A program made the translations under genes and the position numbers. Under the pieces are notes generated by a model. That model was not told where the DNA came from, made no database searches, and saw only the letters and a program-made list of their open reading frames with translations. Positions 13,973 to 29,306 of a stretch of DNA of 58,426 nt are shown piece by piece. Source of the DNA: a virus (Duplodnaviria > Caudoviricetes); the IMG/VR virus record IMGVR_UViG_3300011114_000309, positions 1 through 58,426 of that record. One strand, 5' to 3'. Each line of letters opens with the position of its first letter. The stretch's first letter is position 1.

Positions 13973-14230
13973 TCATGCTGGCTTCCTTCCTGGCTTGGCC
14001 CGTGGTGTGCCGTCTTTCTTAAGACCGTACTTGGCTTTCTTGGGTTTGGTTTCTACGGGTTGTTCAGCTTGTTGGTATGCAAGTTTCTTTTGTTCGTACT
14101 CTAAGTTGATGCGATGGTTCTTCTCGATGTTCTGAAGACGGGTGATGAGATGGTTTACTTCCACCCAAGGAAGAACCATCAGTCCACGGAATACCAGTTC
14201 AAGATCTTTTGATCCAAGTTCTACGTTCAT
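13973..14230 (-). CDS. Hypothetical protein with basic C-terminal tail
   Basis: KYGLKKDGTPRAKPGRKP tail; overlaps the stop of the upstream exonuclease. Confidence 0.6.
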   Translation of the reverse strand: MNVELGSKDLELVFRGLMVLPWVEVNHLITRLQNIEKNHRINLEYEQKKLAYQQAEQPVETKPKKAKYGLKKDGTPRAKPGRKPA

Positions 14231-15105
14231 GTTTTCTCCAAATAAGTTTTGTACTGCTTACAAAAATTAGCGACCTGACAGTACGATTTGCAACGTACTC
14301 GCTCGCCTTCTCTAACCTCCACGGTGTAACCCTTGGAGTCCTTCAAAGAAGTGAATGCAGCATTCGCTTCCTCTAAAGTCGGGTGAACTGACTTAGCCCG
14401 GACATTCCCGGTCTTGATCAGTGCGTAGGTTGTGGGCCTCTCCCACATCTCCTCTGATGAACACTCCGGCATGTCATCGTCTAACTGGAGTGCAAAGTAC
14501 GCATCGTTGTGTTTCGATAATCTGGATTTGACATAAGCCTCACGGGCCTCAGAAGGCCACAGGGGGATGTCAATCACAGCGACGGGGGATTGTGGGTATC
14601 CGTCCTTCGTTTGCGCTTCACGGGCCGTCCAATCCCTTACGATGGCTACGATCTTGGCGGCTTTGACTGGAACGTTCTTGCACCGTTCAATCAACCAGGC
14701 GTAAACGTTTAACTGGTTATGCCAGTCTTGCTTCTCATTCATCACGGCCCAAGCACCGGTGACTTTGTAGTCAGAGATGATGATGCCGTCTGGTTCAACT
14801 TCTTGTAGGTCCATCTGTCCTGACAATGTCCAGCCGTCGAGTTTTGTGTAGAGGCGTTCCTCGATGACGTGATGGGAGTCCTTGCCATGCTCGAGGACTT
14901 TATGAACGGCGGAGCCGAACAGTTGCCATACCATCTCCGAAGCATCCTGTTCTAAATCATCCCAATGCTTATGCTTAAGACTCACAATCTGAGGAGAGTT
15001 AAGCAATTCAGTCACCGAGATATGAGAGTCACCCTTGGTATAGGTAGGCCTCTTGATGACGTTGATAAACGTCTGAGGTAACTCAAACTTGTTTGTTAGC
15101 TTCAT
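14227..15105 (-). CDS. PD-(D/E)XK exonuclease (RecB/Cas4-like)
   Basis: GSAVH, E...LSGQMD...ISDYK, QLNVY motifs, terminal CxxYCxxxxxC; next to ERF and SSB. Confidence 0.85.
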   Translation of the reverse strand: MKLTNKFELPQTFINVIKRPTYTKGDSHISVTELLNSPQIVSLKHKHWDDLEQDASEMVWQLFGSAVHKVLEHGKDSHHVIEERLYTKLDGWTLSGQMDLQEVEPDGIIISDYKVTGAWAVMNEKQDWHNQLNVYAWLIERCKNVPVKAAKIVAIVRDWTAREAQTKDGYPQSPVAVIDIPLWPSEAREAYVKSRLSKHNDAYFALQLDDDMPECSSEEMWERPTTYALIKTGNVRAKSVHPTLEEANAAFTSLKDSKGYTVEVREGERVRCKSYCQVANFCKQYKTYLEKT

Positions 15106-15343
15106 GGATAGACCAATTTAAAAGTTTGTAAAAGCACATCGAGTCTTTGTTAGATCCGCCTAACCACGTTTGCCATGTAGGACTAACTTCGTCATAGGTA
15201 AAAAGAAGCATGAGGTGGTAGTACATAGCGGCGTCATACTCTTCGTTCTGGTAGTAGTGCCACATCAGGTCTAAGTTTTTGGCTTGCTCACTGACGTAAA
15301 AGGCGTATTCCCTGGCACGTCGGATAACTTCTAATCGTGTCAT
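15083..15343 (-). CDS. Hypothetical protein, first gene of leftward operon 1
   Basis: ACAGGAG RBS and a strong promoter immediately upstream. Confidence 0.7.
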   Translation of the reverse strand: MTRLEVIRRAREYAFYVSEQAKNLDLMWHYYQNEEYDAAMYYHLMLLFTYDEVSPTWQTWLGGSNKDSMCFYKLLNWSIHEANKQV

Positions 15344-15372
15344 GTCATCTCCTGTCTGCTAGTTGTGCAGTC

Positions 15373-15401
15373 AATATAGCAGGTAGGTTCTGACATGTCA
15401 A
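15373..15401 (-). promoter_or_regulatory. sigma70-type promoter, leftward operon 1
   Basis: TTGACA-N17-TATATT with TGn extension on the minus strand. Confidence 0.85.
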
Positions 15402-15409
15402 CTAGGTTT

Positions 15410-15435
15410 AAACTCCATAAATATTTATGGAGTTT
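15410..15435. repeat. Perfect 26-bp palindrome, copy 1 (putative operator)
   Basis: AAACTCCATAAATATTTATGGAGTTT is self-complementary; near-identical copy at 29281. Confidence 0.9.
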
Positions 15436-15725
15436 TGATGCGACGCGCAGCCAGGGTTGATGAAAATCAAGGACTTATCGTCAAGGCGTTACGCGCTTGT
15501 GGGGCGACGGTACGGGTCATTTCGCAGGGTGATGGCATACCTGATCTGTTAGTTGGGTACCGAGGCCATACGATTCTGATGGAAGTGAAGGACGGGAATA
15601 AGCCTCCTTCGGCGAGACAGCTCACCACGGCAGAGCAGATCTTCTTTGACCAATGGACTGGCGGGAAGTTATTCATTGTGAACAGCGTAGAAGAAGCGCT
15701 TGATGTATTGAAGGATTGCCGATAG
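15435..15725 (+). CDS. VRR-NUC-like PD-(D/E)XK nuclease / resolvase
   Basis: RVDENQ...GIPDLLVG...LMEVKDG...LTTAEQIF...NSVEEAL. Confidence 0.85.
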   Translation: MMRRAARVDENQGLIVKALRACGATVRVISQGDGIPDLLVGYRGHTILMEVKDGNKPPSARQLTTAEQIFFDQWTGGKLFIVNSVEEALDVLKDCR

Positions 15726-15728
15726 CAT
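15700..15728 (+). promoter_or_regulatory. Candidate sigma70 promoter for a small RNA
   Basis: TTGATG-N17-TAGCAT, ~70 nt upstream of an intrinsic terminator. Confidence 0.5.
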
Positions 15729-15734
15729 GAGGGC

Positions 15735-15800
15735 TGTAGTCCATGTTGTCTCCTGTTGGTCTTCCCAACTTTTGCCCCTTGCAATAAGGGGCATTTTTTT
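15735..15800 (+). ncRNA. Candidate anti-RBS small RNA
   Basis: Promoter, CATGTTGTCTCCTGT seed complementary to RBS/AUG of leftward leaders, then terminator. Confidence 0.55.
15773..15800 (+). terminator. Rho-independent terminator
   Basis: TGCCCCTT-GCAAT-AAGGGGCA followed by T7. Confidence 0.9.
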
Positions 15801-15808
15801 GGTATAGT
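15779..15808 (+). promoter_or_regulatory. sigma70 promoter overlapping the terminator, upstream of structured RNA
   Basis: TTGCAA-N18-TATAGT with TGn extension. Confidence 0.6.
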
Positions 15809-15811
15809 CAT

Positions 15812-15958
15812 CTGGTCGGTGTGGCAACCGGCAGCGCTAAGGTGAACCCCAGAGCATTTAGGTGGGGCTTGTGTGGTCACAATGTCTTCCTTAGCAGACT
15901 GCGTGATTGCCCATGCCAAGGGCCATGCCCCTCCTAAGTCTTCTGGGGTTTTGCTTTT
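15812..15958 (+). ncRNA. Structured RNA resembling phage C4-type antisense RNAs
   Basis: Hairpin with loop GTGGCA; long stem AACCCCAGA..TTAGG..GGGGC / GCCCC..CCTAA..TCTGGGGTT enclosing a hairpin with loop ATGCCAA; followed by T-runs. Confidence 0.55.
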
Positions 15959-15959
15959 G

Positions 15960-16205
15960 GCACTGACCGTACTCCGCACGAGAGTAGGGGCCGCAAGTGG
16001 GGCTGCTCGGAGTTAAACCGCACACGGTATGCCGTTAGGCTAGGGGGCAGATCCCGAACAATCCGTGGGACTCGCCGTAGGCCCAAGTCCGGGGGTGTGA
16101 GAGTTAACCCGTCTCGCACATGGGCCTCCCGCAAGGGGGTGGAATCCTCTCTCTCTATCCTGTATGGGGTAGGGGGAGCCTTTGGGTGGAAATACCCACA
16201 GATGT
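15960..16205 (+). ncRNA. Unidentified GC-rich multi-hairpin structured RNA
   Basis: Several stems with G-U pairs on the + strand; GCAA and GAAA tetraloops; no credible ORF. Confidence 0.5.
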
Positions 16206-16209
16206 GTTT

Positions 16210-16422
16210 TTAGGTGGTTTGGCCGTCGATAAATTCGTCGAGGCCTGAGCCGGTCAGGACATAAGCGGCGTCCTTATATTCCACAGTGATTAGCTGTTGT
16301 CTTAGCCACTCGTATCGTTTGAGTTGGTGTTCTAGTTCTTCAAGTCTTACTGCTGCTCGCTTCGCTACAGCGGCGTCGGCCCAGGGACCGTTAATCCCCT
16401 TTAGCTGGTCGATCAAGTTCAT
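16210..16422 (-). CDS. Hypothetical protein
   Basis: RYEWLRQ...LDEFID pattern common in small phage proteins; last gene of leftward operon 2. Confidence 0.65.
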   Translation of the reverse strand: MNLIDQLKGINGPWADAAVAKRAAVRLEELEHQLKRYEWLRQQLITVEYKDAAYVLTGSGLDEFIDGQTT

Positions 16423-16576
16423 TGGTTAAATCCTTCAGAAGTTCTTCGGCCAAAGCTTTAAGCGCGATGGACTTTAGCATCAGGGTATAGGCCTGACGAT
16501 AGGCATGTTCTGCTTCGTCGTGGAGCTGCTCCACACGGACTTGAAGTTGGACTCTTGGATCAATTTTTAACATCAT
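16391..16576 (-). CDS. Hypothetical coiled-coil protein
   Basis: Probable start MMLKIDPRVQLQ overlapping the end of the HTH-sigma4 gene. Confidence 0.5.
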   Translation of the reverse strand: MMLKIDPRVQLQVRVEQLHDEAEHAYRQAYTLMLKSIALKALAEELLKDLTNELDRPAKGD

Positions 16577-17420
16577 GTAACCCCTGTTTCCACCCCTCAC
16601 GGAAGGCATCCACGATGTAAACGTCGTTGAGAGGGATCTTGTTAAAGTGACTGTAGGCGGTCCAGAAATGTGATCGACTAACCACCCGCTTTGCACAATT
16701 CTGAGTGGCTCTGTCATAGGCATAGTAAAAGGCTTGTTCACAGGCATCAAGAAGTTCTTTGCCAGGTTTCTTTCTTGCCACAAAAATATGCCAAGCGGCA
16801 GAACGTTTACTGGAAAACGTGTCTATATCAAGGCATGACATTAACTTGTCTTTACGATCTCTAAGTTTGATTAGTCCTTTATGTTCAATCTGCCTAACTC
16901 TTTCCCTTGTCACATCAAAGGCTCGACCAACTTCTTCTAAGTTGTGTTCTTTGGAGCCGTCCATGCCGTAACGCATCTTGATGATCTTCGCTTCCTTTGG
17001 CGACAAAGTATGTAAGACCTCGTGGACTTTCTCTTGGATTTCTTTTTTGTGAACCATGTCCTCGAGGGATAAGGTCTCTTCGTCACCGCCGTAGGTGAGA
17101 ACGGACATCTGATGTTTATCCAACAAGACCTGGCCTTTGTTGGTGGTCAAGGTATTCCAGAGTTGTTCTTCGGACCAAAGATCTTCAGGTAAAGCACAGA
17201 AGTAATCTAATAACTTTTGTGCGGTGGCTGTGAACGTACCGTCTTGTTTCAGCGGCGCTTCTTTTAAGGTTATTAATCGGTGAATGGACTGCATGTGAAC
17301 GCCGATGTCTCGAGAGAACTCAGCAATTGATTTAAACCCAGCATTTTCTATGGCACTTAGCAGTAGATTGTTTTTTATTTTTAGTTCTACGCGGTATTCT
17401 TTCATGGTTTCTCCTTCCAT
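16560..17420 (-). CDS. HTH plus sigma70 region 4 fusion transcription regulator
   Basis: LSPKEAKIIKMRYG...NLEEVGRAFDVTRERVRQIEHKGLIKLR matches RpoD region 4.2; N-terminal SIAEFSRDIGVHMQSIHRL HTH. Confidence 0.85.
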   Translation of the reverse strand: MEGETMKEYRVELKIKNNLLLSAIENAGFKSIAEFSRDIGVHMQSIHRLITLKEAPLKQDGTFTATAQKLLDYFCALPEDLWSEEQLWNTLTTNKGQVLLDKHQMSVLTYGGDEETLSLEDMVHKKEIQEKVHEVLHTLSPKEAKIIKMRYGMDGSKEHNLEEVGRAFDVTRERVRQIEHKGLIKLRDRKDKLMSCLDIDTFSSKRSAAWHIFVARKKPGKELLDACEQAFYYAYDRATQNCAKRVVSRSHFWTAYSHFNKIPLNDVYIVDAFREGWKQGLHDVKN

Positions 17421-17653
17421 GCTGCTTCAAACCCTTTAAGCCAAGCCTTCTCCCAGGCGATACACCACAGGTCATAAGACCCATCAAGTGGAAACTTGAA
17501 ATCTTCCTTGCCTTTCATCATGGCTTTAACATCTTTGCGCTTGATGAATGCCTCCCAAGCTTTGTCTCTGTCAGGGTTAACAAGGGGTACGTCGTCAAAC
17601 AGTCCTTTCTTACTGCCTTTACTTTTCTGGTGCATGTTGTGATCGCCACTCAT
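17402..17653 (-). CDS. Hypothetical protein
   Basis: Probable start MSGDHNMHQK overlapping the stop of the upstream gene. Confidence 0.55.
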   Translation of the reverse strand: MSGDHNMHQKSKGSKKGLFDDVPLVNPDRDKAWEAFIKRKDVKAMMKGKEDFKFPLDGSYDLWCIAWEKAWLKGFEAAWKEKP

Positions 17654-17886
17654 TGCTTTCCCCTTGCTCGCGTCCGTAGCCGTAGCGTCTGCACTGCACT
17701 GTCCTTGCTTCGTTGCCCTCTGTATACCGTTCCGTCCCCGTAGCAATTACCACCATCGACAAGTGCTTGGCGCAGTTCGTCAATTTCTTCCTGCATCCGC
17801 GCTTGGATCATCGACTCGCTAATCATGCCCATCTGATGATCGGGATGCTCCTCGCATCTTTCGTTCCAAGTCTTAATGTGTTTCAT
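17650..17886 (-). CDS. Small modular-array protein
   Basis: LRQALVD module and RARGKQ end; ATGA-coupled. Confidence 0.6.
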   Translation of the reverse strand: MKHIKTWNERCEEHPDHQMGMISESMIQARMQEEIDELRQALVDGGNCYGDGTVYRGQRSKDSAVQTLRLRTRARGKQ

Positions 17887-18161
17887 TTATTTCCCCTTGC
17901 TCGTATGGCGCCTTCGCTGTAGTCGGGACGAACCCACTCGCTTTTTGCCACGGCGATGCAGTCGTTCGAATCCAGCATGTAATCGCCTTCGGTGACGCAG
18001 TAATCGTCTTCCTCTTTGATCGCCTTGCAGATGCGATCAAGCTCGGCGGCAGCAACAAGGGCAGCGAAGCGTTCGAGCTGCCCTTCCCAGCAGGTCCAAC
18101 CAAGCCCGTGCTTGGCGATGCCAGCCTTCCGCGCCAGCTTAATAATTTCCTCGTGGGTCAT
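17883..18161 (-). CDS. Small modular-array protein (LERFAALVAA...AIRARG)
   Basis: Paralogous to neighbours; probable start MTHEEIIKLAR. Confidence 0.65.
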   Translation of the reverse strand: MTHEEIIKLARKAGIAKHGLGWTCWEGQLERFAALVAAAELDRICKAIKEEDDYCVTEGDYMLDSNDCIAVAKSEWVRPDYSEGAIRARGNK

Positions 18162-18421
18162 GTGTTTCCCCTTGCTCGTATAGCTTTCTTGCAATCCTCG
18201 GCATCAGGTTTGTTTCTGTAAGCCTCGTCCTCGTCTTCAAATTCTTGATTGCACCAGTCATGAAACATCTGGTCACACAACCTTGCACATGACTCGCGTT
18301 CATGCGCGGCAACAAGGGCAGCGAAACGTTCAAGGTCTTCAACGTGTGCCGTTGTGACAAAGTAGGAGAAATGCGACATGCCCGACTCCAGCGCCATGCG
18401 GATTATTTCTTCTCTGTTCAT
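18158..18421 (-). CDS. Small modular-array protein (LERFAALVAA...AIRARG)
   Basis: Probable start MNREEIIRMA; ERESCARLC motif. Confidence 0.65.
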   Translation of the reverse strand: MNREEIIRMALESGMSHFSYFVTTAHVEDLERFAALVAAHERESCARLCDQMFHDWCNQEFEDEDEAYRNKPDAEDCKKAIRARGNT

Positions 18422-18654
18422 TTGTTTCCCCTTGCTCGTATGGCGGCGGCGCAGTCTTTTCCATGCTTGTACCACTCAGGTCCACCATTAAATACATTCA
18501 ATGCCGGATGCACCCCAAGCCCCTCACACACCTTCGCACACGCCTCACACTCGGCAGCAGCAATGATGGTGGCGAACTCTGCGAGTGACTCTGCGGTAAA
18601 AGCATAAATGCCGTACTCGTTCCTCGCCATGCGGATGATGTCTTCTCTATCCAT
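18418..18654 (-). CDS. Small modular-array protein
   Basis: MDREDIIRMAR...ECEACAKVC...DCAAAIRARGNK. Confidence 0.65.
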   Translation of the reverse strand: MDREDIIRMARNEYGIYAFTAESLAEFATIIAAAECEACAKVCEGLGVHPALNVFNGGPEWYKHGKDCAAAIRARGNK

Positions 18655-19102
18655 GATTCTTCTCCTTCAAGGCTTGCTCAATGGCTTTTGCAAAGGCAAG
18701 CACACCATAATTCTTACCACCATCGTAGAGATTTGTATCTGCCAGCTCAAACACAGCATCATCCGTCAGTGAAACCCATTCACGCTTTGGGATTACTTTT
18801 TCATGGTACGTCTGATCGTTCATTACTGCCATAGCAAGTGACACGCAGGTTTGGCATGGTGCGGTGTAGAGAGGTGTCCATCGCTCAGGATGACGGCCAA
18901 TATCTGCTGGTATGTGCGTGATGACATTATTCGTAATAAAGTTGTGCATCCACGCCACCGGCTCTTGCTCTGTCTCTAATGCTTCGTGCAACCGGCGCAG
19001 TTCGACGGCTGATTCCCTGCCCGTGCTATTGCTTATTCGTCCTTGCACAAACTCAGCGTCCAGCGCATCAGCCAGCCGCAGGGCTTTGGGTTGTGTGCTC
19101 AT
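18647..19102 (-). CDS. Small modular-array protein (EPVAW...PLYTA...KREWV)
   Basis: Shares DNA modules with 19099-19521. Confidence 0.65.
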   Translation of the reverse strand: MSTQPKALRLADALDAEFVQGRISNSTGRESAVELRRLHEALETEQEPVAWMHNFITNNVITHIPADIGRHPERWTPLYTAPCQTCVSLAMAVMNDQTYHEKVIPKREWVSLTDDAVFELADTNLYDGGKNYGVLAFAKAIEQALKEKNHG

Positions 19103-19521
19103 GCGTTCTTCTCCCGCAGCTTGGCTTCGATGTATCGGGCAAACCTCACACCGTCCTCATTCAAGAAAAGTGCTTCCATGTCCTCCTCCGTCAGCCCAAC
19201 CCATTCACGCTTTGGTGATGCGGTGTAGAGGGGTATGTCATCTGGATTGGGGCCGATCAGGTTGCCTTCTTCGTCAAATTTTGATGATTGATACCACCAA
19301 AGTTCGCCTTTGCCCCCATCGGTAATCCACGCCACCGGCTCATGGTCAGTTTTCACCATTTCATCGACACGTTTTTGCGATGTGTCGTCGGCATCGACAA
19401 GTGCTTGGCGCAGGATGGCGATGGCTTCAGCGTAGTAATTTTCATCGCCCGTTTCCATCAACATCTGTGCGCTTGCATCCTCCAGCACCTCTATCGCTTC
19501 TTCAATATCTTCCCTGCTCAT
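19099..19521 (-). CDS. Small modular-array protein (EPVAW...PLYTA...KREWV)
   Basis: Shares modules with 18647-19102 and 17650-17886. Confidence 0.65.
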   Translation of the reverse strand: MSREDIEEAIEVLEDASAQMLMETGDENYYAEAIAILRQALVDADDTSQKRVDEMVKTDHEPVAWITDGGKGELWWYQSSKFDEEGNLIGPNPDDIPLYTASPKREWVGLTEEDMEALFLNEDGVRFARYIEAKLREKNA

Positions 19522-19745
19522 GTGTTTTTCCTTTTGATTGCTGCCTCTAGTGCTCTAGCAACATCAAGCCAACCGCCACCTTCAAGAACGTCATCAATTG
19601 CATCAAATACTTCTTTATCTGTCAGCGCAACCCATTGCTTGGCTGGTTTGCTTGAAATACAAGTGACTGTATAGGCTCTGCCACACTGACAACCCCAAGC
19701 TACAGGCCCGTCTGCGGATGACCTTGCGTTTTTGTTTTCACTCAT
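19518..19745 (-). CDS. Small modular-array protein
   Basis: PVAW, QWVALTD, ARALEAAIKRKN modules. Confidence 0.6.
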   Translation of the reverse strand: MSENKNARSSADGPVAWGCQCGRAYTVTCISSKPAKQWVALTDKEVFDAIDDVLEGGGWLDVARALEAAIKRKNT

Positions 19746-19747
19746 AT

Positions 19748-19891
19748 TCACCACCACTTTTGAGGTTCAAGAAATAAAGCAGCACAGACTGCTGCCATCG
19801 CAAACCACCCACCTGCTGCCATTGCCATGGATATACCAAGGCCAAGCAACGCAAACATGCGGAACCACATATCAAATTCGCTTAACTTCAT
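19748..19891 (-). CDS. Small membrane protein, 47 aa (not in ORF track)
   Basis: GGGAG RBS; MKLSEFDMWFRMFALLGLGISMAMAAGGWFAMAAVCAALFLEPQKWW; fills the operon gap. Confidence 0.6.
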   Translation of the reverse strand: MKLSEFDMWFRMFALLGLGISMAMAAGGWFAMAAVCAALFLEPQKWW

Positions 19892-20199
19892 TTCTCCCTC
19901 GCTTTCAGCATGGCGTCTGCCATTGCATATGATTGCTCGGCAAGATCTTCAAATCCCCAATCTTCAAATTCTTCCCAAACCTCAAACATTTGTTGCAGAG
20001 CCTTGGCTGCAAAGTAATCACGAAGTGGCGTGTCGTTCTGAGGTTGGCAGCAATGTCCGCACCGAGGGCATTCAAATTGCTGTGACGCTTTCCTCAATCG
20101 ACTTACATGACCTTTGTTATAGCCAGTCTGTTGCGCGATATCTTTGATCGTAAGTGAAGGATCTTTGACCAACTCACGAACCTTTGTGTAACGGTTCAT
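19888..20199 (-). CDS. HTH-containing small protein
   Basis: LTIKDIAQQTGYNKGHVSRLR HTH, CPRC knuckle, LRDYFAAKAL module. Confidence 0.65.
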   Translation of the reverse strand: MNRYTKVRELVKDPSLTIKDIAQQTGYNKGHVSRLRKASQQFECPRCGHCCQPQNDTPLRDYFAAKALQQMFEVWEEFEDWGFEDLAEQSYAMADAMLKAREK

Positions 20200-20501
20200 G
20201 TCCTTGCTCCTAAACCAAACGGGTTATGCCAATTCATTGGCACTTTTGGTTTACGTGCTTGATAGGTTTTATGTTCTTCTTTGACTTCGTAGTAATTCAC
20301 GATGGTCTTTTTCCAAGGGATGGTTTGCTCTTTAAACCCTTTTGATTTCACAACCATATCGTCTGCTGCCATTTCATCTAACAGTTGACCGGCTCGCTTC
20401 GCTGTGAAGTCAAACTTCTCGCCAATGGTCCAAGCATTCACAGGATTCTTTAACTTCTTTAGATAGTCAAAGATCATTTGCTTTCTTTTTTCTTTATTCA
20501 T
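20196..20501 (-). CDS. Putative winged-helix protein
   Basis: IFDYLKKLKNPVNAWTIGEKFDFT pattern; C-terminal WHNPFGL; start uncertain. Confidence 0.5.
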   Translation of the reverse strand: MNKEKRKQMIFDYLKKLKNPVNAWTIGEKFDFTAKRAGQLLDEMAADDMVVKSKGFKEQTIPWKKTIVNYYEVKEEHKTYQARKPKVPMNWHNPFGLGART

Positions 20502-20730
20502 CTTTACTTGTTTCATTAGCTTTCTCCTTTGCAAGCTTAGAAGCGTCAGCCATTGATAACCCTTCTGGAATATCTTCCAACTCAGAAGTCTTGACCCAAC
20601 GTCCTACATAAGTAAGACCGCCAACGTCTTCAGTATGAACAGCAAGAATGCCAAACCGTTTTGACATGACAAACTTCATTGATCCACCAGGTATGGCAAA
20701 CAGTACATCGTTTAATTTGTTTTTGTTCAT
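20494..20730 (-). CDS. Hypothetical protein
   Basis: ATGA-coupled ORF in the operon. Confidence 0.6.
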   Translation of the reverse strand: MNKNKLNDVLFAIPGGSMKFVMSKRFGILAVHTEDVGGLTYVGRWVKTSELEDIPEGLSMADASKLAKEKANETSKDE

Positions 20731-21014
20731 GACCGTCCCTCGTAATCAATCTCTACCGTCTCAGCAAAACCAAAGACCCTGCCGTTATCTTCTGCATACT
20801 TAATATCTATATTCCTAGCCACCTCATACAGGGTTTTATATCCCTGAGTTTTAAAGATGTGGTCTTCCAACATCTGTACGGCGGGCAGGTATTTAGAACT
20901 CTGACGATCAGCTTCTTGTTTCCATTCTTGAATTTGTTTTTCTTGCTGTTGAATTAATTTGTCCTGTTGTTCTATTAACAGTTCGTACGCCTGAATTAGT
21001 AAATGATTTTTCAT
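20727..21014 (-). CDS. Hypothetical coiled-coil protein
   Basis: CAGGAG RBS; Gln-rich helix. Confidence 0.65.
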   Translation of the reverse strand: MKNHLLIQAYELLIEQQDKLIQQQEKQIQEWKQEADRQSSKYLPAVQMLEDHIFKTQGYKTLYEVARNIDIKYAEDNGRVFGFAETVEIDYEGRS

Positions 21015-21348
21015 GTTGTATCTCCTGATTCAATATTGATTGTTCCCGTTCCATCTTTTTTCTAAGCTTCTGTTTGAATTTGTATCTCCTTGCTATTTCA
21101 GTTCTAGTTAGCTTAAATCGTGGCTTGTCTTCACCAACCCCAAGGGTGTAGATCTTTGTTGCGTCTGCACCTCTTTTATTCTTCACCCAACCCGAGATAT
21201 GCACCGCACCAACATCATGTAAAGCGCGAAGATAAGACTGTGCGGTCACAATATGCAGGCCTGTTTCTGCACAAATGTTTTGAGCTGTACACCCATCAAA
21301 CAACATCTTGATCATCCTGGCATACAGCCGTTCGTTCATCTTGATCAT
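20908..21348 (-). CDS. Putative winged-helix DNA-binding protein
   Basis: TAQNICAETGLHIVTAQSYLRALH...VHISGW pattern. Confidence 0.6.
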   Translation of the reverse strand: MIKMNERLYARMIKMLFDGCTAQNICAETGLHIVTAQSYLRALHDVGAVHISGWVKNKRGADATKIYTLGVGEDKPRFKLTRTEIARRYKFKQKLRKKMEREQSILNQEIQHEKSFTNSGVRTVNRTTGQINSTARKTNSRMETRS

Positions 21349-21611
21349 GCTTGGTCATTACCCCACAGCTTCCACTCTTCACCGTCTTTGACAATCTTCT
21401 TTGTATCTTCGATTGCAGCGTCATAACCGGCGCGGAATGCTCTGCCATAAGAGGATCTGGAGAACATGAACTTGTTGGCCTTGATGTCAATCTTCAGTTC
21501 TTCGTACCACTTGGCCCATGCGTCGTAGGCGGGATGAGATTCTGCTGGGCAGGCCTTCCCTTTGGTGCATTCACCGTGACATGGAGGACAGCTAGAAGGG
21601 TTCATTGTCAC
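21345..21611 (-). CDS. Hypothetical protein with N-terminal CPPC Cys motif
   Basis: CPPCHGECTKGKACP. Confidence 0.6.
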   Translation of the reverse strand: MTMNPSSCPPCHGECTKGKACPAESHPAYDAWAKWYEELKIDIKANKFMFSRSSYGRAFRAGYDAAIEDTKKIVKDGEEWKLWGNDQA

Positions 21612-21765
21612 CAGCCTTTGTGCGTACTAACAAGGTAGCCATGCGTGACTCAGCGATAGCCTCTAGTCCACACTCAATGGCCTCTTCAAAGTTCTTGTCC
21701 TCACACAGGTTGTGCATCTTTTTCAGTGCGTTGATTGCTCTCATGATGTGTATCGCGTGATCCAT
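21592..21765 (-). CDS. Hypothetical 57-aa protein (not in ORF track)
   Basis: GAGGA RBS; MDHAIHIMRAINALKKMHNLCED... Confidence 0.55.
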   Translation of the reverse strand: MDHAIHIMRAINALKKMHNLCEDKNFEEAIECGLEAIAESRMATLLVRTKAGDNEPF

Positions 21766-21937
21766 AGTTCCTCACTTTAAATTCAATGGCTCGGGCAAAA
21801 GCGTATAAGAAGTTGTCTGCGGTAAGTGAATTGGGTATGTCGTCCATACAGGCTCGGATGTCTGCATCACTGATGCGAGCAGGACATAGACGACCTTGGT
21901 TACAAGTTTGATTACACGGCGGACAGGTCTTCATCAT
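21701..21937 (-). CDS. Hypothetical protein with N-terminal CPPC Cys motif
   Basis: CPPCNQTCNQGRLCP plus FARAIE module. Confidence 0.55.
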   Translation of the reverse strand: MMKTCPPCNQTCNQGRLCPARISDADIRACMDDIPNSLTADNFLYAFARAIEFKVRNYGSRDTHHESNQRTEKDAQPV

Positions 21938-22085
21938 GTCTTCTCAGAAATGACGGTTGCTGAGGGAAGTGGCACATCAGTTCAGACACTTCTGTCAGTG
22001 CATCCCATTCCTCTAAAACAATCATCAAGTGCATGTAATCTACAAGGATCTGCTTCTGCACATCCTGGTTCGTATAGTCTTTCAT
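21912..22085 (-). CDS. Hypothetical 57-aa protein, first gene of leftward operon 2 (not in ORF track)
   Basis: ACAGGAG RBS; MKDYTNQDVQKQILVDYMHL... Confidence 0.6.
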   Translation of the reverse strand: MKDYTNQDVQKQILVDYMHLMIVLEEWDALTEVSELMCHFPQQPSFLRRHDEDLSAV

Positions 22086-22114
22086 TTCATCTCCTGTCTG
22101 TTAGGTTAGACTCT

Positions 22115-22153
22115 AATATACCAGTTGACTTTGGTAAACGCAAGTGGTAATCT
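22115..22153. promoter_or_regulatory. Overlapping divergent sigma70 promoters
   Basis: Minus: TTGCGT-N17-TATATT (22143 to 22115). Plus: TTGACT-N17-TAATCT (22125 to 22153). Both have TGn extensions. Confidence 0.75.
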
Positions 22154-22184
22154 GACTACTCTTTCATACTTTTATGGAGTCGAA

Positions 22185-22331
22185 ATGGATCAGGCAAGGA
22201 AGATTTTTGAGACGATGTTGACTGCTTCGGGCAGGTCAGCACCGGTGTGGGACGGGAGGAAGTACACAACCAAGAACGTGCAAACCTACTGGCGCTGGTT
22301 CTGGCTGGGTTATTCGATGAGTGGCAAATGA
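22185..22331 (+). CDS. Hypothetical 48-aa protein
   Basis: GGAG RBS; MDQARKIFE...YWRWFWLG. Confidence 0.6.
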   Translation: MDQARKIFETMLTASGRSAPVWDGRKYTTKNVQTYWRWFWLGYSMSGK

Positions 22332-23083
22332 CAGCTATCAATATCGACATCATCAATATCGGAGCAGGGACTCAGTCTCGAGCCGAGATCAACGAGCAGG
22401 TAGTCAGCGAGTACGCCGAAGCGATGGACCACGGGTCTATCTTCCCACCTGTCCAGTTGTATTCAGACGGCGTTAATTATTATTTGGTTGATGGGTTCCA
22501 CCGGTATCACGCGCATCGTCGGCTTAAGAAGAAGGCGATCAACGCTGATGTTCTTCAGGGGACTCTGCGGGATGCGATCCTTCATTCGCTCGGGGCCAAT
22601 GCTTTGCATGGACTTCGGAGGACGAACGAGGACAAGCGCAAGGCTGTCATCACGATGTTGGAAGACATTGAATGGCAGGACTGGGCTGACAACGAGATAG
22701 CTAGGAACTGCAAGGTGTCAGCTCCTCTGGTAGCCAAGCTACGCAAGGAGATGGGTGCGGCTAGGACGACGAGAAAGTTCAACACCAAGACCGGCAAGAC
22801 ATCTGAGATCAAGGTTGAACCTCCGAAGGAGGAAGAGTTCAATCCAGAGAAGGACGCTGTTGACGATCTACTGGCAGAGAATGAATCGTTGAAGGATCAG
22901 CTAGCCGTAGCGAAGATGGGGACTACACCGGATGCATCGATGGCGCAGGAGACCATTGAATCCTTACGGGAGGAAATTAGACTCTTGAAGATTGAGAATG
23001 AAGCACTTCGTATATCTCGAGACACGTTTCAAAACGAGAACGCACAGTTGAAGAAACAAGTAGCCATGTTGCAGAAGAAATGA
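22328..23083 (+). CDS. ParB/Srx-like N-terminal domain protein with HTH and coiled coil
   Basis: FPPVQL...YYLVDGFHRYHA, NALHGLRRT, DNEIARNCKVS. Confidence 0.85.
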   Translation: MTAINIDIINIGAGTQSRAEINEQVVSEYAEAMDHGSIFPPVQLYSDGVNYYLVDGFHRYHAHRRLKKKAINADVLQGTLRDAILHSLGANALHGLRRTNEDKRKAVITMLEDIEWQDWADNEIARNCKVSAPLVAKLRKEMGAARTTRKFNTKTGKTSEIKVEPPKEEEFNPEKDAVDDLLAENESLKDQLAVAKMGTTPDASMAQETIESLREEIRLLKIENEALRISRDTFQNENAQLKKQVAMLQKK

Positions 23084-25821: not shown

Positions 25822-26550
25822 CTAGATGAACAAAGGCTTTTGATATTGCATGGTATTGATGCGATCTTCAAACACTTTCGCTTCCCGCCAATCATTTCCG
25901 TTGCGGCGTTCGTACCGAGCGGCAAAAGACCATGCCATAGAGTCTGCTGTGTAGAGTAATTCACGCACCAATCCGGATGATAGGGCAGTAGTCTTTACAC
26001 CAAACCCGTGAAGACGTAGATCGGGACGTTCGGTTTTGATAGCAAGCAGTACTTGCTCGATAGATGCGATGTTGTTATTGCGTTTGCATACGGACCCCAC
26101 ACCGACCCACATGCCTTGCTTTAGGCGGTCTCCGTACATACGGATGTGATTAACGTAGTCTTGTGGGTCGTACCCTTGCAGGACCGGAATGATGTAAACA
26201 CCTCCAACGTCATGTTGAAGCAGCTCGTCGTAGCGTTCGATGGTCATGCGTTGATGTTCGGGTATGGTTTTCCCGGTCATCTTCAGGACAAATGCTTCGC
26301 ACATAAAATCCTGGGACACTGCGGCTAGTAGGTTGCCGCAGGTGGAGAATCGTTTGATGTGATGGGCATATTCAGACACGGGGAAACGGTATCCCCCATG
26401 TCTGACCACCTCGGTAAATGCACCTGAATCCATGATCCAGTCGTTGACTGGGAAATGGCTTTTGCGATTCCGTATGGTGTTTACGGAAATAAAAGCAGAC
26501 TCAAAGTGTTTCGAGTCTGCGGGGTGATGCAGTCCAGTGAAAAACCTCAT
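25822..26550 (-). CDS. TGT-fold 7-deazaguanine DNA transglycosylase-like protein (DpdA-like)
   Basis: MDSGAF, QDFMCE, PVLQG, GVGSVC, LHGFG, ADSMAWS motifs. Confidence 0.8.
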   Translation of the reverse strand: MRFFTGLHHPADSKHFESAFISVNTIRNRKSHFPVNDWIMDSGAFTEVVRHGGYRFPVSEYAHHIKRFSTCGNLLAAVSQDFMCEAFVLKMTGKTIPEHQRMTIERYDELLQHDVGGVYIIPVLQGYDPQDYVNHIRMYGDRLKQGMWVGVGSVCKRNNNIASIEQVLLAIKTERPDLRLHGFGVKTTALSSGLVRELLYTADSMAWSFAARYERRNGNDWREAKVFEDRINTMQYQKPLFI

Positions 26551-27140: not shown

Positions 27141-27809
27141 CTAATGCTCGATAAAGGCTATCGCCTTAGTCGTGGACCAACAAAGGCCGCATGTCAGGCA
27201 TGAGGAGGTTTTCCCGGTTTGTTCCGGGCATGTAATGCCTTCGCCCATGACGTTAGCCGACATGGATCCACCCTTGTCGGACCATCGGATCCACGCGCGA
27301 TCATTTTGCAGATTGTCGGCTATGGCATCGGCGATCGGACCGTCGGTTCTATGGGTGTAACCGAAGACATGCAACGAAGGGTATGCCCGAAGGGCATTAG
27401 CCCAAAAATCTACATAATCCGTACTGTAAAAGTCTCCTAAGACATGAAGACGAACTACAAACCCTTGCGGATGTTTCCGGGCTAAATAGTCCAGTTCGTC
27501 ATTAAGTCTCATTTCCAATAATTCGGGTTCGGACGAACTAATCCGGTGAGCGAACCCCATATTGTTCCCGAAGCATCGGTCCCATTGCTGACATGATCGG
27601 GAACAGGTAGCCCGTTCTTCAAGAGTAAGGGTGTACATGGGCATACCGGACCATTTACCCTTTGTGACTACGTTCGAACCCGCACCAAGCTTGGCATTTC
27701 CCGAAGCCGGTTTAAGTAGACGCGAAGCATAGTCGGCTAAGGGTTTAACCGTCTTCGGGTGAATTGTCACGGCATGCTCGAGTGCCGGGTGATTTGCGCG
27801 TAGTCTCAT
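27141..27809 (-). CDS. GP88-like Cys-rich protein (radical-SAM-related)
   Basis: SGNAKLG, TCSRSCQQWDRCF, VRLHVLGDFYS, FGYTH, CPEQ...CLTCGLCW; GGAG RBS before ATG 27809. Confidence 0.7.
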   Translation of the reverse strand: MRLRANHPALEHAVTIHPKTVKPLADYASRLLKPASGNAKLGAGSNVVTKGKWSGMPMYTLTLEERATCSRSCQQWDRCFGNNMGFAHRISSSEPELLEMRLNDELDYLARKHPQGFVVRLHVLGDFYSTDYVDFWANALRAYPSLHVFGYTHRTDGPIADAIADNLQNDRAWIRWSDKGGSMSANVMGEGITCPEQTGKTSSCLTCGLCWSTTKAIAFIEH

Positions 27810-27824
27810 TGTTATCTCCGTTAG

Positions 27825-27866
27825 TAGGTCCACAAAAACCCTCCGCGAAGGGTTTTAATTGACCTA
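27825..27866 (-). terminator. Hairpin / intrinsic terminator between leftward genes
   Basis: AAAACCCT-CCGCGA-AGGGTTTT, extended by TAGGTC/GACCTA. Confidence 0.55.
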
Positions 27867-28160
27867 CTTGAGAGCAAGCTTCAAGGCCTTGATCCAGTAC
27901 TTTTCTTTTCTCTCCGGTCCTACGAAGTGCAAGTGTTCGGTCCTGTACTCTCCGGTCCTATAGTCTTGTTCGGGTTCGCTCGATACCCAAGTATCCGGAC
28001 CGATAACAGAACTTGAAGGGTGAGGAAAGAAACGTAACTGCCTGACTAAATCACGAAACGAAAAAGGCTCGAATTCGAACTCGAAGCCTGACTCCTCCAC
28101 TTCGCCATGCTCGGCGGACTCTTCGGTGATTACTTCGTAGGTTTTACTGATTAAAAGCAT
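27864..28160 (-). CDS. Hypothetical phage protein
   Basis: GGAG RBS; TYEVITEESAEHGE motif. Confidence 0.7.
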   Translation of the reverse strand: MLLISKTYEVITEESAEHGEVEESGFEFEFEPFSFRDLVRQLRFFPHPSSSVIGPDTWVSSEPEQDYRTGEYRTEHLHFVGPERKEKYWIKALKLALK

Positions 28161-29280: not shown

Positions 29281-29306
29281 AAACTCCATAAACGTTTATG
29301 GAGTTT
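29281..29306. repeat. Perfect 26-bp palindrome, copy 2 (putative operator)
   Basis: AAACTCCATAAACGTTTATGGAGTTT; differs from copy 1 only in the central 2 bp. Confidence 0.9.

Follow-up and report, generated by a model that had tools for sequence, protein, structure and literature searches.

The locus at positions 15736-15800 raises the question of whether the short interval behind a small phage gene is the tail of that gene or an RNA gene in its own right, and which messages such an RNA would act on. A sequence-only reading had proposed a trans-acting RNA that shuts off the translation of early operons. This study analyzed the whole stretch in which the locus lies, a 58,426-bp viral contig with an estimated completeness of 93% (hereafter the window), and the sequence features, their conservation, the complementarity to phage start regions, and the non-conservation of a rival open reading frame (ORF) were computed directly. 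On the basis of these results, we judge it rather probable that 15736-15800 is a real, conserved phage small RNA (sRNA) gene whose product occludes translation starts.

The candidate unit and its genomic surroundings

The nearest cultured relatives, according to the large terminase, were the pelagiphages HTVC027P and HTVC023P, with an identity of approximately 53%, and megablast and blastn searches against the phage collection revealed no close DNA relatives of the window. A search for tRNA and tmRNA genes across the whole window found none. The minus-strand gene at 25822-26550 matched queuine tRNA-ribosyltransferase (phrog_1279, E 1.2e-61); we take phage genes of this kind to be DpdA-like and, presumably, to indicate 7-deazaguanine modification of the phage DNA.

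A point that the sequence-only reading had not mentioned is that a real gene, read rightward, has its 3' end in the proposed unit (15438-15725, + strand); this gene encodes a 95-aa putative endonuclease. The translation displays a PD...EVK motif of the PD-(D/E)XK type, and the protein matched the profiles phrog_93 (endonuclease, E 2.3e-10) and phrog_5702 (Holliday junction resolvase, E 5e-5). Its assignment as PD-(D/E)XK or VRR-NUC-like thus draws on the PHROG matches and the motif, but a Pfam search with the 95-aa protein returned 0 matches, and the top hit among solved structures was a 92-aa protein named 'Nuclease' with a weak score (E 0.62). A scan of 185,579 species genomes with the nuclease, conducted in search of a prophage or a clue to the host, yielded no confirmed relative.

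The blocks on both sides of the rightward nuclease gene run leftward. The first block (from 15343 to approximately 11428) comprises an 86-aa ORF (gene 15343), a PD-(D/E)XK exonuclease, and an Erf annealing protein, and the 86-aa ORF overlaps the exonuclease start (15083 vs 15105). Its promoter (15373-15401, - strand) reads TTGACA-17-TATATT and matches the consensus at 11/12 positions, with a TG. The second block (from 22085 to 16210) comprises small ORFs and a sigma-70 region-4 protein. This 286-aa protein (16560-17420, - strand), in which a sigma-70 region 4 domain (E 3.4e-16) was recognized along with a weak match to NUMOD1, may be a phage transcription factor for promoters that the sigma-70 scan missed.

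A perfect palindrome, AAACTCCATAAATATTTATGGAGTTT (15410-15435), is located in the interval from the leftward promoter to the nuclease start codon and has the nuclease Shine-Dalgarno (SD) sequence (GGAG) in its 3' arm; a near copy occurs at 29281-29306. Both arms are altered together in the related locus L059 (CAT/ATG to CAG/CTG), and one arm is altered in L008, yielding a G-U pair on the + strand. The palindrome could serve as a 5' hairpin masking the SD or as an operator.

The hexamers, the unit of approximately 65 nt, the terminator, and the three pairings described by the sequence-only reading were all found in place. The -35-like hexamer TTGATG (15700-15705, + strand) lies within conserved Glu-Ala-Leu codons of the nuclease and is separated by a 17-nt spacer from the -10-like hexamer TAGCAT (15723-15728, + strand), which includes the nuclease stop codon TAG. 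This candidate promoter matches the consensus at 8/12 positions and is absent from the list of scanned promoters because the scan required 9/12; judged from the window alone, it is weak. Transcription would start 7-8 nt past the -10 element, giving a predicted RNA of approximately 65 nt (15736-15800, + strand). Folding from 15736 left 19 nt unpaired, followed by two hairpins (-18.8 kcal/mol, z -2.93).

The predicted RNA begins with a single-stranded seed, GUAGUCCAUGUUGUCUCCUGUU (15736-15757, + strand), that consists of an anti-SD plus a start-codon complement; CATGTTGTCTCCTGT was found at 15742-15756. In the fold, a small 5-bp hairpin follows (GUUGG-UCUUC-CCAAC; 15755-15769, + strand), which is present in the window and in L008 and L059 and missing from L005 and L006. 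The unit ends in a rho-independent terminator (15773-15800, + strand), with a 9-bp stem that includes 5 G-C pairs (15773-15793) and then seven T (15794-15800). Because of the orientation of the T-run, the hairpin is a terminator for the + strand only. It was the top-scoring terminator-like site within 14000-23000, a region with 8 such sites in total, no more than in shuffled sequences (9.1). A search of the whole window with Rfam 15 (4227 models) returned 0 matches at the gathering threshold.

Six RNA sequencing runs contained 6-34% of the sampled words of the window, and assembled contigs of three of these runs and of one DNA run were compared with it. RNA and DNA contigs from several studies break at 15800/15801, and their loose ends carry on with different sequence; one variant beyond this point brings a TTGACA promoter, as in L007. 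The contig ends were considered as a sign of transcription and rejected, since a DNA run ends there too. The position looks like a mosaic joint at the terminator end, reflecting strain mosaicism.

Directly after the sRNA unit, we observed a second noncoding unit (15779-16215, + strand), which is ORF-poor, G+C-rich, and approximately 395 nt long. Its promoter reads TTGCAA-18-TGgTATAGT, and the -35 element lies in the loop of the sRNA terminator. The motif TTCTGGGGTTTTNCTTTTGG of this unit was found in 30 viral contigs, and where it occurs elsewhere, the unit has a sigma-70-type promoter of its own, spaced identically from a 5' hairpin with a covarying stem and the loop GUGGCA. Another predicted element is a long-range helix between AACCCCAGAG...UUUAGG and CCUAAGU...UCUGGGGUU; compensatory changes were found in 11/30 consensus pairs, and G-U pairs point to the + strand. 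The second unit had no match in Rfam.

Conservation of the unit among related phages

Relatives were collected by scanning viral contigs with the nuclease, which found 103 loci, and the best 80 of these were kept. The results revealed that the module, with a terminator 41-63 nt past the nuclease stop codon, is present in 50 of the best 80 of 103 loci. The 50 loci share one layout, in which TTGnnn-N17-TAnnnT is located at the stop codon and is followed by a CU-rich anti-SD stretch and then by a hairpin that is G+C-rich and carries a T-run, whereas in the remaining 30 the nuclease gene runs directly into the next gene or is without such a terminator. Across the loci that carry the module, the identity of the nuclease proteins falls to approximately 60-70%.

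An alternative to an sRNA gene is a plain 3' untranslated region, in which the stretch would only end the nuclease mRNA as its tail and terminator, the hexamer would follow incidentally from the stop codon, and the CU stretch would have no role in trans and would at most affect mRNA stability. The nuclease gene needs a terminator anyway, the promoter in the window reaches just 8/12, and the TTG of the -35 element falls in a conserved Ala-Leu codon pair and is also TTG in some module-free homologues. Nevertheless, the composition of the hexamers is not what a stop codon by itself would leave. Among 45 unique module loci, the -10-like hexamer had T in 40, A in 45, two free positions, A in 40, and T in 40; positions 5 and 6, which lie past the stop codon, are thus kept, and positions 3 and 4 vary. 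The first three positions of the -35-like hexamer had T in 44, T in 39, and G in 42 of the same loci. TAnnnT at 17±1 nt from TTG was found in 40/45 unique module loci, compared with 1/27 unique homologues without the module. Moreover, where the stop codon has moved, as in L042 (TGA TAGGAT) and L038 (TAG TAAAAT), the hexamer still lies 17-18 nt from TTG. The retention of positions 5 and 6 and the constant spacing fit a -10 element and not a stop codon alone.

The stretch between the hexamer and the terminator also argues against an ordinary untranslated tail. An anti-SD 5-mer occurred in 40/43 unique bodies, compared with 16% of shuffled bodies and 0/16 of the other terminator-like sites in the same loci. 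Silent positions of the gene are, in addition, less well conserved than the stretch: the nuclease DNA of L008 and L059 shares 80-81% identity with that of the window overall and 60-61% at third codon positions, whereas the RNA is 93% identical in the seed part and 96-100% identical in the terminator. The high RNA identity in these two loci could come from a recent exchange of the segment. On balance, we regard the untranslated-region explanation as unlikely.

The terminator stems comprise at least a dozen different sequences that are always paired, and all five consensus pairs (5/5) exhibited compensatory changes. At least three T were present within the 6 nt before the terminator stem in 32/43 bodies. 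A MAFFT/RNAalifold consensus of 39 RNAs recovered the terminator only; no covariation was found in this alignment for the 5' hairpins of the single folds, which are group-specific.

The motif has also been read in the opposite direction. The sequence-only reading had itself raised the case that a minus-strand ORF beginning at 15744, with 23 codons in the window, is translated and has the motif as its true ribosome-binding site. The site reads ACAGGAGACAACATG, with a good SD and 5-nt spacing; the ATG is retained in all six members of the window's group; and the motif varies with the ribosome-site flavour of the lineage, which would be expected of a real site. However, the ORF is not conserved. 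A start codon (ATG, GTG, or TTG) 4-11 nt from an SD-like motif on the minus strand was present in 16/44 unique modules and absent from 28/44, and where a start exists the ORF length ranges from 7 to at least 49 codons. A 1-nt indel shifts the frame between the window (MDYSPH...) and L005/L006 (MDLQPP...). The hairpin and T-run are oriented for the + strand only, and the promoter scan lists no minus-strand promoter in 15757-16200. A minus-strand ribosome-binding site is consequently the explanation to which we give almost no credence.

A further alternative is a recombination relic, that is, a functionless direct copy left behind by insertion of the nuclease cassette at a gene start or by its exchange through one. 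Consistent with this possibility, 15341-15355 and 15742-15756 are direct repeats around the promoter region and the nuclease gene, phage mosaic joints are found at gene starts (L007 keeps the leader with another first gene), and contigs of several runs break at the terminator end. A relic should decay, yet the CU stretch persists in groups with nuclease proteins of just 60-75% identity. The copy also lies inside a transcription unit, between a stop codon and a + strand terminator, and most groups keep the SD complement only and no full copy. These observations make a relic very improbable.

The neighborhood of the module is conserved as well. An exonuclease homologue lies divergently upstream in 46/50 module loci; it is the first gene in 14 of these, lies behind a small ORF at 316-678 nt from the nuclease start in 20, and is farther away in 12. 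The window has the arrangement of the 20-locus class. In two groups (L026, L031, L035, L041-L048, and L072), the nuclease ATG is located 7-8 nt past a TATAAT or TATATG -10 element, with no SD, and the nuclease mRNA looks leaderless. A leaderless mRNA in these groups implies that the CU stretch is not meant for the nuclease's own SD.

In many relatives, the sRNA terminator is followed by the sequence ACGCATGGGGATTG, searched for with up to 1 mismatch (23 matches in 19 loci). L022 contains four copies spaced 190-196 nt apart (1910-2503), and four of the 19 loci lack the sRNA module. A phage-specific promoter is one possible role of this sequence; alternatively, a repeated RNA unit could begin with it.

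Predicted targets and the specificity of pairing

Pairing energies were calculated with ViennaRNA duplexfold and cofold. The 22-nt free 5' end was paired with all 140 candidate start regions of the window, which were collected by a crude ORF-plus-SD rule and include some spurious ORFs (e.g., 2729); the mean energy was -14.0 kcal/mol (sd 4.1). The results revealed that the best predicted target is gene 15343, the first cistron of the divergent exonuclease-Erf operon. Its start region (-14 to +8; 15336-15357, - strand) reached -26.5 to -26.7 kcal/mol and ranked 1/140, and it ranked 1/19 among local start regions by cofold. The pairing of 15/15 positions, two of them G-U, that had been proposed for this gene was seen at 15355-15341, ungapped and with G-U allowed.

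Gene 27809 (222 aa; phrog_2554, unknown function), a target candidate absent from the sequence-only reading, ranked 2/140. Its start region (-15 to +11; 27799-27824, - strand) reached -25.9 to -26.8 kcal/mol, which is about equal to the pairing with 15343. The first 23 nt take part in the duplex over their entire length, with GUAGUC pairing to GACUAC immediately past the start codon, and the homologue in the closest complete relative, G001, reached -26.6 kcal/mol (rank 3/118). Just upstream of this start region, a terminator-like hairpin, ACCCTTCGCGGAGGGT, is followed by TTTTT (27840-27870, - strand); gene 27809 may thus rely on read-through. Gene 2729, a 46-codon and probably spurious ORF, ranked 3/140 (-24.2 kcal/mol).

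The other two targets named in the sequence-only reading fared less well. The start region of the 57-aa gene 22085 (22073-22099, - strand; -23.7 to -23.9 kcal/mol, rank 4/140) does pair at 14/15 positions (22097-22083), and its leader has CAGACAGGAGATGAMATG in common with that of 15343. Gene 22085 is nevertheless a weaker candidate: G001 contains only a weak homologue (41% over 34 aa), and the leader in front of it is a different one. Gene 21014 (start region 21011-21028, - strand) pairs with a 2-nt bulge as described, but at -19.7 kcal/mol and rank 13/140 the match is generic. Of the two genes described as the first behind strong leftward promoters, 15343 fits the description, whereas the promoter of 22085 has a poor -35 element (TTGCGT) with an extended -10 element (TGgTATATT) and was not listed by the promoter scan. 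With up to 2 mismatches, ACAGGAGAYRAMATG was found at only three minus-strand places, those of 15343, 22085, and 21014; shuffled sequences had a mean of 0.99 places, and three places were reached in 7/100.

We compared these energies with those of control seeds. When CUCC was fixed and the flanks were shuffled, the best energy was reached by 5/300 seeds and the second best by 0/300. A stricter picture emerged from pseudo-seeds that are reverse complements of the real start regions of this phage: 11/86 reached -26.5 kcal/mol with their best partner, some of the 11 being overlapping start candidates, and the second and third best energies were matched by 3/86 and 4/86, respectively. This finding suggests that the seed is above all a good start-region complement and only modestly more than that.

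Seed-target covariation was examined in 33 loci with a close divergent gene, in ten groups drawn by eye from RNA similarity. The RNAs paired more strongly with their own divergent start regions than with those of other groups (-13.7 vs -9.8 kcal/mol), and a group-level permutation gave P 0.002 for the 10 groups and P 0.020 without the window's group. The effect was not target-specific, however, because another strong start region of the same locus had an equal advantage (0/20000 permutations). The seed therefore tracks the ribosome-site flavour of its lineage and not one target: AGGAGA-type sites go with UCUCCU in the RNA and AAGGAA-type sites with UUUCCUUU. Within the window's group, the seed is identical and the target spacer differs; hence, there is no compensatory change at close range.

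As a second control, we counted how often seeds complementary to other start regions place the divergent start at a rank that equals or exceeds the one obtained with the real RNA. In the window, the divergent start ranked 7/140 with the real RNA, and 2/66 control seeds did as well. The corresponding values were rank 4/118 and 2/72 in G001, rank 2/117 and 0/64 in G003, and rank 12/122 and 1/63 in G005. In G002 (rank 39/145; 12/84 control seeds) and G004 (rank 107/125; 59/68 control seeds), control seeds matched the real RNA more often. The divergent start was thus significant against control seeds in 4/6 complete genomes, namely the window, G001, G003, and G005. With a structure-aware energy, the divergent start ranked 2/118 in G001, 7/117 in G003, and 2/122 in G005, and the divergent gene fell beyond the top 8 in G002 and G004. 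The link between the RNA and the divergent first gene holds in 3/5 groups with complete genomes, the window's group included.

These results also bear on the possibility that the RNA is real but that its main targets are host mRNAs, or that it acts as a general start-region competitor rather than on 15343. The seed is near a generic start-region complement, the divergent gene is poorly matched in G002 and G004, and the scan of 185,579 species genomes found no relatives that would point to a host. Nevertheless, the divergent start ranks far above the result of control seeds in 4/6 complete genomes, and the RNA and the divergent start region are linked in 46/50 loci. We consider host or general targets improbable. 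Taken together, the proposal of a trans-acting RNA was partly supported by the conservation of the module in 50 of the best 80 of 103 loci and by the top rank of 15343, but it was weakened by ordinary start-region complements that pair nearly as well, by a 22085 leader unconserved in G001, and by a generic match at 21014. The specificity of pairing is moderate, and gene 15343 is a plausible target.

Returning to the sRNA gene that we favor, the following mechanism would fit the locus. A small RNA gene would be nested in the 3' end of the nuclease gene, with a sigma-70-type promoter whose -35 element lies in the last codons and whose -10 element spans the stop codon. The RNA may be transcribed from a promoter of its own, released from the nuclease mRNA by processing, or both; processing could contribute because the two transcripts would end at one terminator. 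Its free 5' end of approximately 22 nt, a translation-start complement composed of an anti-SD (CUCC), a spacer, and CAU, would pair with the ribosome-binding regions of phage mRNAs and block 30S binding, possibly followed by mRNA decay. The main target would be 15343, which heads the divergent exonuclease-Erf recombination operon approximately 400 nt away, and 27809 would be the second; the RNA would cover -14 to +8 of the former message and -15 to +11 of the latter. Transcription of the nuclease and the RNA would proceed rightward, away from the strong leftward promoter that serves the recombination operon. Because the 86-aa ORF overlaps the exonuclease start, its block could cut exonuclease synthesis by translational coupling. 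We infer from the computed features the transcription start, the existence of the RNA, the repression, and its timing, and in this way the RNA may shut off the translation of early operons.

A more far-reaching version, which we put forward as speculation with a low probability of being correct, is that the RNA is the master of a regulon, with a seed that co-evolves with the ribosome-site flavour of the lineage. It would switch off early messages (the exonuclease-Erf operon, 27809, and others), its terminator loop would supply the -35 element of the next structured RNA of approximately 395 nt, and an RNA-based early-to-middle switch would replace a protein repressor. If this were true, a large clade of uncultured aquatic phages would possess such an RNA-based switch.

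The candidate is of interest for several reasons. It would represent a family of about fifty members in uncultured aquatic phages, detected through comparison alone, with a clear anatomy of a promoter across a stop codon, a free 5' seed, and a terminator common with the gene. The adjoining recombination operon offers a testable target, and the locus could provide a simple system for asking how RNA times phage early genes. It also carries a warning for annotation, since a second gene may hide in the tail of a small gene.

Comparison with known RNA systems

According to one review, the known small RNAs of phages are few and come almost without exception from a handful of model temperate enterobacterial phages (PMC12197685). 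The same review describes the c4 RNA of P1 and P7 as a 77-nt trans-acting RNA that pairs imperfectly around a phage ribosome-binding site and blocks translation, and the sar RNA of P22 as a 68-69-nt RNA that pairs with the start region of the ant mRNA and lowers its translation (PMC12197685). Our literature search, as far as the sources were accessible, found nothing on the present phage clade. Like c4 as outlined in that description, the candidate RNA is predicted to cover the ribosome-binding site of a phage message, and like sar it is predicted to pair with the start region of a phage message.

The candidate differs from both in its arrangement. The c4 RNA is cut from the transcript of its own target and uses two loop sequences, whereas the candidate RNA lies on the strand opposite its predicted target, approximately 400 nt away, and has a free 5' end. 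The sar RNA is encoded directly opposite its target and is hence fully complementary, whereas the best duplex of the candidate RNA is approximately 20 bp with G-U pairs and mismatches, and its sites are 0.4 and 12 kb off. A cis-antisense RNA of the sar or OOP type was considered and rejected: the opposite strand holds only a non-conserved short ORF and no annotated 3' end, and the predicted targets lie 0.4-12 kb away with imperfect pairing.

The top Rfam match was the mmgR/suhB family RF00519, at 18 bits against a gathering threshold of 41 (E 0.77). Both the candidate RNA and this family have an unpaired CU-rich stretch in front of a terminator hairpin; the similarity extends no further than this layout, and the first stem of the model does not form in the candidate RNA, which belongs to no described family.

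DapZ and MicL of enterobacteria exemplify 3'-end sRNAs whose promoter lies within the preceding gene; both are Hfq-dependent and target host mRNAs. The candidate resembles them in having a promoter-like element in the last codons, a terminator common with the mRNA, a conserved single-stranded seed, and a U-rich stretch before the terminator. Unlike DapZ and MicL, however, the candidate gene resides in a phage, and its predicted targets are phage genes.
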